A program made the position numbers. DNA of 50,477 nucleotides. It comes from a virus (lineage: Duplodnaviria; Heunggongvirae; Uroviricota; Caudoviricetes). The stretch lies in IMG/VR virus record IMGVR_UViG_2645727867_000002. One strand, 5' to 3'. This document shows, one piece after another, positions 24,001 to 27,000 of the stretch (the first letter of the stretch is position 1; every line of letters starts with the position of its first letter).

Positions 24001-27000
24001 TCACGCAGAGGCACCGTAATGGTGCCTTTGTCATTTCTGCGCTTCGCACAAGCGTAAATAAACCAAAGAACCTTTCAGGATGAGCCCTGGTGGATAACCG
24101 GCAGTGGTCTGGTTAACCCTCTTTGGGCTGGTTATTCCTGTGCGCAGGGTTCATCACTAAAAGGAAATAACCGATGAATATGATGACCGTGCCGTTTCAC
24201 GGCGATTCTCTTTATGTGGTTAACCATAACGGCGAACCATACGTTCCCATGAAACCTGTCGTTGAGGGAATGGGGATGACCTGGCAGTCTCAACACCGCA
24301 AATTGATGGAGAGATTTAAGACCTGCATCATCGAAATGATGATTCAGCTCCCCGGTGATACTCAGCGTCGTCTGGTTATCTGTCTTGCTTTACGTAAACT
24401 TGCAGGTTGGCTGCAAACCATCAACCCAAATAAAGTTAAACCTGAAATCCGCGACAGAGTCATTCAGTATCAGGAAGAGTGCGACGATGTTCTCTATGAA
24501 TACTGGACGAAGGGTTTTGTCGTTAATCCTCGTCAAATGAGCGTGATGGAAGAACTCAATCAGGCTTGCGCTGACATGCAACGGGATAAAAACATTGTCA
24601 GTGTGTTTGCTACCGGGCTGAATGAGTGGAAACAGGTTAAAGCTGCGCATGTATCAAAAATCCGCACATTGATAAACGAAGCGAATCTGCTGATTGATTT
24701 TGTCCTGGCTGATACAGGCAAAGGGAAAATAACAAAGGCGGATTGATGGAGAGGTGGCTAATGATATCGGATAAAATCATAACGCTGACAAAGACCATTT
24801 GTGTGATTGTCGGCGTTTCATTTTCGCTAATGATGGTTGCTCTTTTTCTTTCCATAGCCTGGATGGCGTTGAGTTCGGCAGGGCTGGTGGGGTGAGCATA
24901 AACCGAATTATTTCCGCGTTTACCGTTATTCTGCTGGTGGTCTGTGGTGCGCTTAGTCTGGGGCTGAATCATTACCGTGATAACGCCATCGCCTACAAAG
25001 AGCAGCGCGATAAAGCCACATCCATCATCGATGATATGCAGAAGCGGCAACGTGATGTAGCAGAACTTGACGCCAGATACACAAAGGAGCTTGCTGATGC
25101 TAATGCGACTATCGAAAGTCTCCGTGCTGATGTTTCTGCTGGTCGTAAGCGCCTGCAAGTCGCCGCCACCTGTGCAAAGTCAACGACCGGAGCCAGCAGC
25201 ATGGGCGATGGAGAAAGCCCAGGACTTACAGCAGATGCTGAACTCAATTATTACCGTCTCAGAAGTGGAATCGACAAGATAACCGCGCAGGTTAACTACC
25301 TGCAGGAATACATCAGGACGCAATGCCTGAAATAATTTTTTTGCAAATCACAAAGTCCATTTAATGAGCCCCGCGATGCGGGGCTTTTTTATGTACGCAG
25401 TAAACGCGCTTCACACGCGCGACTTATGAACACAGAACCTTTCAGGATGACCCTTGAGGATGCCGGTTTGGTGATCGGTGCCTTTCTGTGGGCCGGAATC
25501 CTGTGTGACAAGGTTCATCACTAAAAGGTGTGCACTGATGAATTATCCAACTATCGTTAACGGCATCGATTTTCGAGATCTGATTTTTGTGGCAAACAAC
25601 GATCCGGTTACAGATTCTTTTATGGTGGCAAAAGCATTTGGAAAGCTGCCGAAGAACGTAGTTCGTGACCTTGAACGAACCATAGAAGCTTGCCCTCCTG
25701 AGTTTGATACAAAGCTCAACTTTGAGCTTTGCTATAAAAACAATGAGTTACAGAATGGTAAGCCGCAAAAATTCTACCGTCTCCGCAAGGATGGGGTGAT
25801 GCTTTTGGTTATGTCCTACACCAAAAAAGAAGCAATGCGTATCAAAATTGCTTACATCAACGCATTTAACTGGATGTACGCCATGCTTCAGGTTGGTCAT
25901 CGTCAATTTGAAGAAGAGAGAAATGCCGTAATGCTGGAGTACATGAAAGAGAAGGATGTTGCCAGCATGTCAGGTCGCCTGCTAAATCGCTGGGGCAAAA
26001 TTAAGAAGCCACAGCTGCTGGCTAGAATTGAACGCCTTGAACAGCACGGGCAAACCGTAATCCCCTGACTCATCAATTAACGGCAGTACCGCGAAACAAC
26101 CCAAGCCAGTAAGTGGGGAAATAACACTGGCAGCCACTGAAAGATGAACCTCCAGCCTTATGGCAAAAAAGATTCTTTGTGGTGGCGGACTGATGGAAAG
26201 ACATCGGTTATTGCAGAGGCCATTCAATGAGTGGTCTCGACAATGGCTTATACCCTACACGGGATAACTTAATTGATATCCTTTTTAACGGATAAAGGCA
26301 TTTCAGCCTGACATAGCCATGCGCCGTATCGTCGCCGTATTCCTGCATTAACAGAGACCGCAGCCCGACAGGGAGACTCCTCTGCGAGAGTGTGCGGGGA
26401 TAATCAAAAACGATACACACCGGGGTTTACCGCGTTAACGGAGCGCGGCGTTGTCCCCTCATGGTCGCTGGTCCGGTGCGATGGTGGAAGAAACTGGATT
26501 TTGTTGCAACTGATAACCATTATCATTTTGCGGGTCCTTTCCGGCGATCCGGGCCGTTACGGGGCGGCGAACCCGCGCGTTTTCACTATTTATGAAAATT
26601 TTTCGGGAAAAAGCAGATCCGTTCTTCTTCTTTTTAACTGATTGATTATCAATAGAATATTAAAAATATAAAAGGATCTGACAAAGGCTGTTTTTGTCCG
26701 AAAACGCCATTTTCAGATCCTTTCTGGTTTCCGGAGGAGTGTATGAACGTCAATAAGAAAAAACTGGCCGATATTTTTGGCGTTGATGTCAGGACCATCA
26801 CCGCCTGGCAGAGTCAGGGGTTACCACTGGTTTCTGGTGGAGGGAAAGGGACTGAATCAGTTTTTGATACAACTGCTGCCATTCAGTGGTATGCGCAGCG
26901 CGAAGCTGATATTGAAAACGAAAAACTCCGTAAAGAGGTCGAAGATTTGAGGGCTGCCAGTGAATCTGACCTTCAGCCCGGCACCATTGATTACGAACGT

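Follow-up and report, generated by a model that had tools for sequence, protein, structure and literature searches.

Control of antirepressor translation by RNA, acting at the ribosome binding site, is described for P1/P7 c4 with icd-ant and for P22 sar with ant (Rfam C4, RF01695), and it is in this respect that the mRNA leaders reported here would resemble them. The P1/P7 c4 and P22 sar systems use trans- or cis-encoded antisense RNAs, whereas the leaders give no C4 match. The mRNA of lambda cIII takes up two alternative folds, one of which exposes the ribosome binding site, and how fast it is translated depends on the balance between them. These alternative structures are reportedly the work of Altuvia, Oppenheim and co-workers. 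The leaders share with cIII the plan of a phage mRNA leader with alternative folds, here predicted, that differ in ribosome-binding-site exposure. The cIII element, however, is short and overlaps the coding start, and its balance is shifted by RNase III binding and temperature, while the leaders are about 130 nt long, lie wholly upstream of the gene, have two long-range 5'-arm helices and precede many unrelated cargo genes. In hok and in IS10 fold-back inhibition, long-range pairing silences translation of the full-length or read-through RNA. The likeness to hok metastable folding and to IS10 lies in sequential co-transcriptional folding, by which the RNA's own flanks decide access to the SD; in the leaders the 5' flank is instead predicted to oppose the silencing hairpin, and neither a toxin nor a transposase is involved. 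In Mu com-mom a hairpin closes off the SD and start codon until a dedicated phage protein, encoded just upstream, opens it. The leaders likewise would place a potentially harmful late phage gene behind a hairpin-locked SD, but they have no conserved partner gene and occur in several unrelated phage lineages.

The window, that is, the whole 50,477-nt stretch of phage DNA analysed here, contains two such leaders in its lysis region. An earlier note on this DNA had placed an Ant-like gene between R and Rz and a Rha gene behind the Rz terminator, each preceded by the same pair of short sequence boxes, and this layout is correct in all respects: both boxes occur twice, in the same order, before the two genes. 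The genes and boundaries concerned are the following.

23366-23899: R, phage lysozyme (ORF and domain match)
24010-24036, plus strand: terminator-like hairpin GGCACC-GTAAT-GGTGCC followed by TTTGTCATTT, the 5' boundary of the Ant cassette
24034-24167, plus strand: Ant-type leader RNA, whole element (covariation model R1, 92 bits, E 4e-23)
24174-24746, plus strand: Ant-like cargo gene (P22_AR_N, PF10547, E 7e-46, 155.5 bits against a cut-off of 30.7; weak ORF11CD3)
24892-25335, plus strand: Rz spanin gene, with embedded Rz1 at 25067-25282
25366-25391, plus strand: intrinsic terminator GAGCCCCGC-GAT-GCGGGGCTT followed by the T run TTTTA, the 5' boundary of the Rha cassette
25401-25531, plus strand: Rha-type (canonical) leader RNA, whole element (R1, 140 bits, E 3e-36)
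25538-26068, plus strand: Rha cargo gene (Phage_pRha, PF09669, 74.6 bits against a cut-off of 29.9; ORF11CD3, 91.3 bits)
26743-27291: Nu1 (ORF and domain match)
6580-7323: early-region Rha (domain level)
7178-8200: early-region Bro-N (domain level)
8498 (ATG) to 9048: early-region Rha (domain level)

Judged by scores above the Pfam gathering score, the product of 24174-24746 is a member of the P22_AR_N family, antirepressor-like by domain, and that of 25538-26068 is a member of the Rha family. Both products begin with MN, as noted earlier, and the count of five antirepressor-like genes in the window (early Rha, Bro-N and Rha, late Ant and Rha) holds at the domain level. As the position of Rz makes plain, the Ant cassette interrupts the lysis cassette. 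This gene layout is already known: the Stx phages 933W, P13374, POCJ13 and phi191 are annotated R-ant-Rz-rha, in the same gene order and with 93-94% DNA identity. The new part is the leader. Public annotation of these phages consists of protein genes only, and the leader is either unmarked or lies under a small 'hypothetical protein' (L148:4539-4673); such spurious small ORF annotations are accounted for by the leader element.

Box 1, GAACCTTTCAGGATGA, is found exactly at 24068-24083 and 25435-25450, and box 2, GGTTCATCACTAAAAGG, exactly at 24148-24164 and 25512-25528. No third match to either box is present in the whole window when up to three mismatches are tolerated (chance expectation 0.36 for box 1 and 0.12 for box 2). 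The covariation model R1, built from the family, likewise reports these two copies alone for the window, at 140 and 92 bits; whether filters are used or not, it finds the same two and no divergent third leader before the early Rha, Bro and Rha genes. Aligned over about 155 nt each, the Ant and Rha leaders agree in 79% of columns, with no difference in the boxes and divergence in the middle part. The central parts of the two types differ by compensatory changes, and both copies give the same predicted SD-sequestering hairpin despite their differing middle sequences. For the Ant-type leader the predicted fold, P0 plus the long hairpin, has an energy of -50.3 kcal/mol, and that hairpin has box 1 as one arm and box 2 as the other. 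The structural parts are as follows.

24038-24056, plus strand: P0 hairpin, Ant copy (stem 24038-24044 : 24050-24056)
24045-24049 with 24140-24144, plus strand: helix alpha, Ant copy, P0 loop CGCAC with GUGCG (covariation)
24063-24069 with 24120-24126, plus strand: helix beta, Ant copy, segment A CCAAAGA with segment E UCUUUGG (covariation)
24071-24164, plus strand: long SD-sequestering hairpin, Ant copy (lower stem 24071-24089 : 24145-24164; SD AAAGG 24160-24164)
25405-25421, plus strand: P0 hairpin, Rha copy (loop UCACAC 25411-25416)
25411-25416 with 25503-25508, plus strand: helix alpha, Rha copy, UCACAC with GUGUGA (covariation)
25431-25437 with 25484-25490, plus strand: helix beta, Rha copy, segment A CACAGAA with segment E UUCUGUG (covariation)
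25438-25528, plus strand: long hairpin, Rha copy (lower stem 25438-25456 : 25509-25528; SD AAAGG 25524-25528)
25457-25469 with 25490-25502, plus strand: upper stem, Rha copy
25440-25446 with 25453-25459, and 25461-25466 with 25475-25480, plus strand: alternative local hairpins P2 and P3, Rha copy

Support for these helices comes from sequence comparison across the family. A set of 79 distinct sequences was collected by a search pattern that fixed 21 bases of boxes 1 and 2, so that the near-invariance of the boxes in this set is partly forced. For the same reason the MAFFT-only alignment is uninformative on the stem between the boxes. Within the 79 sequences, one alpha pair occurs as GC in 35 sequences, AU in 29 and UA in 14, and beta has double-sided changes in four of its seven pairs. 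The covariation score observed for alpha and beta was reached by none of 500 shuffles, and slid controls lowered the proportion of paired cells to 23-59%. The limitation for the boxes was overcome by covariation-model searches, which recovered four divergent subtypes (W, X, Y and Z) whose boxes 1 and 2 have changed in sequence but still pair. Subtype W has a perfect 19-bp duplex, CCUUUCAGAAAGUUGAGCC : GGCUCAAUUUUCUGAAAGG. Subtype Y has CCUUU-C-GG-GGGUGAGC : GCUCACCC-A-CC-C-AAAGG, with the identical mismatch and A bulge retained. Alpha and beta are fully re-coded in the divergent subtypes (e.g. ACGCCC:GGGCGU and CCCCGAG:CUCGGGG). When the sequences are aligned without fitting to the hairpin, double-sided changes occur in 16 pairs of the hairpin, P0 and alpha, against 9.7 +/- 1.7 in shuffles (0 of 500). 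The hairpin is closed by CCUUU:AAAGG in all subtypes; its lower stem is 97.5% paired, with three double-sided pairs, and the upper stem (AGGA:UCCU, CCGG:CCGG) also has compensatory changes. Judged on these comparisons, the SD is paired in a conserved helix with compensatory support, which is the mark of an SD-sequestering leader. Covariation is found both in the local hairpin P3 and in its distal alternative. Alpha, beta and P3 covary strongly, and the complete hairpin is probably incompatible with them, in the case of beta by a steric argument only: beta has no bases in common with the lower stem, and the two exclude each other only as long as the upper stem is paired. Since hairpin, alpha and beta probably cannot all form together, at least two folds are likely to be under selection.

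Folding predictions assign these structures to different lengths of transcript. The hairpin is the minimum-free-energy structure in six of seven subtype representatives (-40 to -57 kcal/mol); in subtype Y that structure is a different one. The predicted hairpins have 25-30 pairs, and their lower and upper stems make up a duplex of more than 25 bp with conserved internal irregularities; in subtype W about 26 pairs are uninterrupted. When the chain is grown in the computation, beta, P2 and P3 form at 88-112 nt, together with alpha in the Ant copy, and the hairpin appears from 118 nt onwards. Direct-path barriers out of the transient fold amount to 13.5-28 kcal/mol, values from findpath that are upper bounds; the folding energies are those of pseudoknot-free structures. 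The open fold lies 10-20 kcal/mol above the hairpin, so that at equilibrium the element would simply be off.

We put at about one in two the probability that each leader is a copy of a cis-acting mRNA element of about 130 nt, whose alternative folds gate translation of the cargo gene. Its role is most likely that of a cis-acting translational gate for accessory genes of the late operon. The mechanism that we propose would run as follows. (i) The upstream terminator would confine transcription of the cassette to Q-antiterminated late transcription. (ii) On the emerging late transcript, the 5' flank would pair with two bulge segments on the 3' strand of the future hairpin, the P0 loop with GUGNGA (alpha) and ACACAGAA with UUCUGUG (beta). 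This ON fold needs only the first ~107 nt and is thus predicted to be the earliest. (iii) The small hairpins P2 and P3 would complete it, leaving box 2 and the SD single-stranded. (iv) A sizeable refolding barrier would hold the ON fold apart from the more stable OFF hairpin. (v) The cargo would be translated from nascent or young read-through transcripts, or while some factor holds the 5'-arm fold. (vi) In the OFF fold box 1, CCUUUCAGGAUGA, would pair with box 2, UCAUCACUAAAAGG, in a long irregular hairpin that buries the cargo SD, and the cargo would be silenced after its formation. That the two folds alternate in vivo, and in which direction they act, we infer from the modelled structures. 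A bolder version, which we advance only tentatively, is that of a new class of two-state RNA switch, in which a 5' arm formed by alpha and beta grips two bulges of the SD hairpin and cargo translation is gated by a signal. Candidates for this signal are a host RNA-binding protein, a small molecule and the kinetics of folding during Q-antiterminated transcription. If this version is true, the element would be a general, portable controller of late-phase expression, common to lambdoid, P22-like and HK97-like prophages, including Shiga-toxin phages.

The same helices can be read without any switching. Alpha and beta might clamp the 5' flank onto the hairpin in a pseudoknot lock and thereby stabilize burial of the SD, making the leader a constitutive attenuator, which would limit the dose of accessory proteins made from a late operon that is transcribed very strongly. 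The hairpin far exceeds every other fold in stability, beta and the lower stem use separate nucleotides and might be joined in one structure by loops of 27 and 18 nt, which could span the helices, and low expression is plausible for a cargo of DNA-binding proteins or nucleases. We nevertheless consider such a lock unlikely, because the compensatory changes extend to the upper stem, which cannot coexist with beta plus the lower stem, because P3 and its distal alternative both covary, and because the intermediate predicted during transcription is a transient fold whose SD is free. The stability of the hairpin can also be taken to mean that the much less stable open fold requires help at equilibrium. 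A beta-closed three-way junction with an alpha clamp would then be an aptamer, at which a metabolite or a host protein such as CsrA exposes the SD. The architecture does resemble an aptamer followed by an expression platform, and since the phages that carry the leader have gene sets unrelated to one another, the effector would more likely be a host factor or a small molecule than a phage protein. The sequence AGGAUG in box 1 and just downstream, which we take to be a possible CsrA motif, is the sole basis of the CsrA idea. Yet even with the threshold relaxed to E<=10 Rfam yields no riboswitch match, and from subtype W to Z the sequences of the junction and of P2 vary, P2 not being conserved in X; known ligand pockets do not behave in this way. 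A factor-dependent ON switch is decidedly unlikely, and a riboswitch with an invariant ligand pocket was rejected on the same ground.

Processing by RNase III would give the long hairpin yet another use. Known phage sites for this enzyme are those of the lambda N leader and the T7 intercistronic regions. Cleavage would separate the cargo message from the lysis message, and the ribosome binding site of the cargo would be either freed or lost. The hairpin duplex exceeds the roughly 20 bp that such a site calls for, above all in subtype W, but strong selection on alpha and beta is left unexplained, and this reading is quite improbable; cutting could act alongside the translational gate. The box 1 AUG also opens a reading frame, which in the Rha copy runs for 25 codons to a UAA in box 2 and encodes a small hydrophobic peptide (MTLEDAGLVIGAFLWAGILCDKVHH). 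That this peptide, or the opening of the hairpin by its translation, is the function is scarcely credible: over 144 instances the ORF varies in length between 5 and 50 codons and is affected by frameshifts and early stops, it has five codons in the Ant copy, and no SD-like sequence stands at a usable distance from the box 1 AUG. A leader-peptide attenuator was rejected because the reading frame is not conserved. The earlier note had regarded the leaders as duplicated regulatory cassettes, possibly for cross-induction of co-resident prophages; on this model they would contain promoters from which Ant and Rha are expressed independently, for example from the prophage. Cassettes that are modular and a cargo of antirepressor-type proteins fit that proposal, which is all the same very improbable. 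A consensus scan finds no sigma-70-like promoter before either leader, and each leader begins just after a terminator; there is no sign that the leaders drive transcription. Covariation, moreover, reaches the extreme 5' edge of the leader, which indicates that the whole element is read as RNA from upstream. The pair did not arise by local duplication either: each leader belongs to its own subtype of a large family and is at least 99% identical in other phage records. Nor do the leaders serve antirepressor genes only, as the same leader also precedes HNH endonuclease and TerB-like genes. The modular character of the cassettes, consisting of terminator, leader and cargo, stands, and the leader is a real shared element.

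The translational-gate reading agrees with the way in which the element is packaged. Leaders start about 10-20 nt past a terminator in both window copies, of 117 distinct leader contexts at least 98 have a terminator-like hairpin with a T run on their upstream side, and the hairpin GGCACC-GTAAT-GGTGCC is found upstream of Ant-type leaders at many other loci. Downstream, the cargo varies among Ant, Rha, KilA-N, ANT, AntA, HNH and TerB. The best explanation is that the leader heads a portable cassette of the late operon, composed of an intrinsic terminator, the leader and a variable accessory gene. A moron, a self-expressed accessory gene of a prophage, was also considered and rejected: a promoter-like site is absent, and the terminator lies upstream of the leader, not downstream of the gene.

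A true C4 plus isrK module is present in the same window at 8251-8439, before another Rha gene. Its C4 loop (8391-8401) has 11 nt of complementarity to the Ant leader (24062-24072), and antisense regulation of the P1 immI type was considered. The match is not conserved in other phages: Stx2a_WGPS2 has an identical C4 and a different leader type, and Stx2a_JNE122398 has an identical Ant-type leader and a non-matching C4 loop. Regulation of this kind was rejected, and the sequence match is probably coincidental.

The leader RNA is a conserved element that has no Rfam 15 family and is unmarked in the public annotations checked. At the gathering score, a search of the whole window with Rfam 15 gives no match on either leader. 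At E<=10 in the leader region, the single match that touches a leader is a minus-strand asX2 at 25366-25445, over the terminator and the 5' portion of the Rha-type leader; it scores 29 bits, where the family's gathering score is 70. Nothing on the element came up in the literature, whether the search was by topic or by box sequence, and no functional study of the late-region Ant, KilA, Rha or HNH genes was found. The only functional study of an Stx-phage Ant that was found concerns Phi24B (Fogg et al.), whose Ant is an early-region gene upstream of qut and is uninformative on the late gene. The leader is nevertheless carried by much-studied phages, including 933W, VT2-Sakai, the O104:H4 Stx2a phage and P22 relatives. 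It fronts, and perhaps controls, their late Ant, KilA, Rha and HNH genes, which could affect the induction of their own phage or of neighbouring prophages, and therefore toxin release. For the study of co-transcriptional RNA folding and translational gating, the leader offers a compact system with natural compensatory variants.

By BLAST, the two leaders are found in 317 and 305 phage records, including 933W, VT2-Sakai, P22-like Salmonella phages and Klebsiella phages. The Ant-type leader is at least 99% identical in 152 phage records and the Rha-type leader in 15 further ones. More than 120 IMG/VR contigs carry the leader. The phages concerned have unrelated gene sets (Sepvirinae, Lederbergvirus, Hendrixvirinae), and besides E. 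coli their prophage hosts include Salmonella, Klebsiella, Serratia and Yersinia. A pattern scan recovered the leader in 16 species-representative genomes, 15 of them Enterobacterales, among which are Yersinia pestis, Serratia, Pantoea, Edwardsiella and Arsenophonus. The leader is present in 809 of 5426 complete E. coli genomes (~15%), with up to eight copies per genome. Leader subtype and cargo gene shuffle independently, and the constant leader sequence is likely to be a site at which accessory genes are swapped between phages.

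The window carries a lambdoid, Stx-phage-like prophage, in which an RNA leader of about 130 nt stands before two genes: the Ant copy (24034-24167) and the Rha copy (25401-25531). The surrounding features, in plus-strand order, are as follows.

First in order, + strand: P21-type holin
Between holin and R, + strand: DUF1327 gene
23366-23899, + strand: lysozyme R
24174-24746, + strand: ORF with a P22_AR_N domain, between R and Rz
24743-24895, + strand: 50-codon ORF, between the P22_AR_N ORF and Rz
24892-25335, + strand: Rz and Rz1
25366-25391, + strand: intrinsic terminator, after Rz/Rz1
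25538-26068, + strand: Rha gene, after the terminator
After the Rha gene, + strand: Nu1, then the large terminase subunit

The earlier note had described two sequences shared by the copies, box 1 (24068-24083, 25435-25450) and box 2 (24148-24164, 25512-25528); both are exact and occur nowhere else in the window. Aligned to each other, the leaders are 79% identical; the boxes do not differ at all, and the divergence is central. The three further antirepressor-type genes that the note placed after cro are Rha, Bro-N and Rha by Pfam. The order R-ant-Rz-rha is shared at 93-94% identity by Shigella phage POCJ13, phi191 and the O104:H4 Stx2a phage P13374, and the ant gene between R and Rz of 933W has been annotated from the first description onward. 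Neither the genes nor their order is new. What is new is the leader, which is unmarked in all four records. A 44-codon 'hypothetical protein' is annotated over one POCJ13 leader (L148:4539-4673), as are small ones in PA-series phage records; these calls are probably spurious, since the reading frame is not conserved. The ORF from the box 1 AUG runs for 5 to 50 codons, with frameshifts and early stops, so that conservation lies at the RNA and not the peptide level. A leader peptide is contradicted by the data and exceedingly improbable.

Box 1 is complementary to box 2 (CCUUUCAGGAUGA with UCAUCACUAAAAGG; one mismatch, one bulged A), which places the Shine-Dalgarno (SD) sequence AAAGG, 9 nt ahead of the start codon in both copies, at the base of a long hairpin. 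The two copies fold into the same predicted hairpin despite different interiors. Among seven subtype representatives, six have this hairpin as their minimum-free-energy structure, at -40 to -57 kcal/mol.

An alignment of 79 distinct leader sequences (A3) reveals two prominent long-range helices. In alpha, the loop of P0, a small hairpin on the 5' side (GCGC-NUCNCAC-GCGC), pairs with GUGNGA, which is bulged out of the long hairpin's 3' strand; one alpha pair is GC in 35 sequences, AU in 29 and UA in 14. Beta joins segment A, the 7-8 nt directly 5' of box 1 (CACAGAA, CUCAGAA, CCAAGAA, CCAAAGA and others), to matching sequences near the hairpin apex, segment E (UUCUGUG, UUCUGAG, UUCUUGG, UCUUUGG), with double-sided changes at four of seven pairs. 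The A3 covariation score is reached by none of 500 shuffles, and sliding the alpha and beta partners abolishes pairing. G-U pairs are found only on the leader's own strand, an argument for RNA and against a palindrome in the DNA. The long hairpin is nearly invariant in A3, an invariance partly forced by the collecting pattern. Searches with a covariation model trained on A3 are free of that constraint, and retrieved divergent subtypes in which boxes 1 and 2 have changed yet can still pair: the duplex of subtype W is perfect over 19 bp, and subtype Y keeps the mismatch and bulged A of the window copies. In these subtypes alpha and beta are wholly re-coded and the upper stem is altered by compensation. 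In the model-derived alignment A4, fitted to the other fold and not the hairpin, the hairpin with P0 and alpha has 16 double-sided pairs versus 9.7 +/- 1.7 in shuffles (0/500). The 5'-arm fold scores 0.386 versus 0.152, and covariation extends both to P3, a local hairpin, and to its distal alternative (CCGG:CCGG of the upper stem). By these comparisons the leader is strongly supported as a real structured RNA.

Segment A adjoins the base of the long hairpin and E lies about 27 bp away at its apex, so on steric grounds lower stem, upper stem and beta should not form simultaneously; with selection acting on each of them, two or more conformations are probably in use. In the alternative 5'-arm fold (alpha, beta, P2 and P3; predicted at about -22 to -33 kcal/mol), box 1 pairs locally in hairpin P2, and box 2 and the SD are unpaired. 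Predicted folding of the growing chain at 88-112 nt gives beta, P2 and P3, with alpha also in the Ant copy; the long hairpin appears after box 2 emerges. Leaving the transient fold by a direct path would cost 13.5-28 kcal/mol, values that are upper bounds.

We propose, with a probability of roughly 0.5, that the leader is a cis-acting translational gate for the gene behind it. (i) The hairpin would silence this cargo gene. (ii) On the nascent late transcript, the 5' arm (alpha and beta) would form first. (iii) It would keep the SD open until refolding, or while some factor stabilizes the 5'-arm fold. A constitutive pseudoknot lock that just lowers dosage is unlikely, a ligand- or protein-dependent switch rather more so, and an RNase III site slightly less probable again; what sets these apart from the gate is chiefly the direction of the effect or its trigger. 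The promoter cassettes favoured by the earlier note are contradicted by the data and very improbable: neither window copy has a sigma-70-like site upstream. The leader is of a known kind, SD-sequestering mRNA leaders with alternative folds; within that kind it forms a new family, marked by an unusual double clamp of the 5' arm. Rfam 15 does not contain it (no family match at gathering score or E<=10), and no paper on it was found in the literature.

By BLAST, the leaders are present in 317 and 305 phage records, including Stx1/Stx2 phages (933W and VT2-Sakai among them), P22-like Salmonella phages, Klebsiella phages and HK97-like ECP1. Exact-pattern scans found them in 16 species-representative genomes (15 Enterobacterales) and more than 120 viral contigs, and 809 of 5426 complete E. 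coli genomes carry them, at 2295 places. One natural recombinant (L072:2516-2645) sets an Ant-type 5' arm (P0 and segment A) on a 933W-type body; beta keeps six of seven pairs, and recombination thus happens within the element.

Of 117 distinct upstream contexts, at least 98 place a terminator-like hairpin and T run 10-20 nt before the start of the leader; the others are mostly a GGCACC..GGTGCC TTTGTCATTT variant, as at 24010-24036. Every leader location is downstream of the late promoter region, which, given what is established for lambdoid phages, suggests that the terminator would limit the cassette to antiterminated late transcription. Cargo includes KilA-N, Rha, P22_AR_N, ANT/KilAC, AntA, HNH endonucleases, a TerB-like protein and one protein lacking a Pfam match. 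Leader subtype and cargo assort independently: L113 has an Ant-type leader before an ANT-type gene, and one of subtype W before the orthologue of the window's Rha. Some prophages (L099) hold three copies. GC-rich subtype Y occurs at five loci.

L099:9822-9946, - strand: subtype Y leader
L054:3270-3394: subtype Y leader
L056:9585-9709: subtype Y leader
L030:2117-2241: subtype Y leader
L045:9322-9446: subtype Y leader, after a tRNA gene and terminator

A 143-aa TerB-domain gene follows in three of the five (L099, L054, L056), so the leader is not confined to antirepressor-type cargo; the ORF behind the leader has just 16 codons in L030 and L045.

Upstream of the third early Rha gene, a true isrK-C4 module occupies 8251-8439, with adjoining Rfam matches to isrK (67 bits) and C4 antisense RNA (83.6 bits); a mechanical ORF spanning it matches Pfam 'Ash'. 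The cognate b sites, UCACCAAAG targets, are at 8291-8299, within isrK, and 8477-8487, the second of which overlaps the ribosome binding site of this Rha gene (start, 8498). The C4 loop GGUUCUUUGGU (8391-8401) is complementary at 11/11 positions to ACCAAAGAACC (24062-24072), segment A of the Ant leader (chance roughly estimated at 4e-4), and would therefore mimic segment E. The match is absent in phage Stx2a_WGPS2, which has an identical C4 but a 933W-type leader, and in Stx2a_JNE122398, with an identical Ant-type leader but a C4-like loop GGUUUCGGUAGUCACC. Without such co-variation between phages, it is probably coincidental.

The 50-codon ORF (24743-24895) is hydrophobic (MMERWLMISDKIITLTKTICVIVGVSFSLMMVALFLSIAWMALSSAGLVG), has no Pfam match, and overlaps the ant stop codon with its start region; its product may be a membrane peptide whose translation is coupled to that of ant, or the ORF may be noise. 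In the 22064-23365 region, the domain of the 263-codon DUF1327 ORF spans only the first 96 codons. The some 500 bp between this ORF and R hold minus-strand ORFs only (22604-22996, 22894-23304), neither with a Pfam match, and may be a reverse-oriented insert or decayed gene within the lysis cassette. Between rha and Nu1, about 670 bp (26069-26742) have no convincing ORF and include a hairpin-rich stretch (about 26640-26730); cos presumably lies here, as in lambda. The sRNA STnc100 is strongly matched in Rfam at 18596-18808 (159.7 bits), 3' of three tRNA genes (16939-17187), in what is presumably the late promoter or antitermination region.
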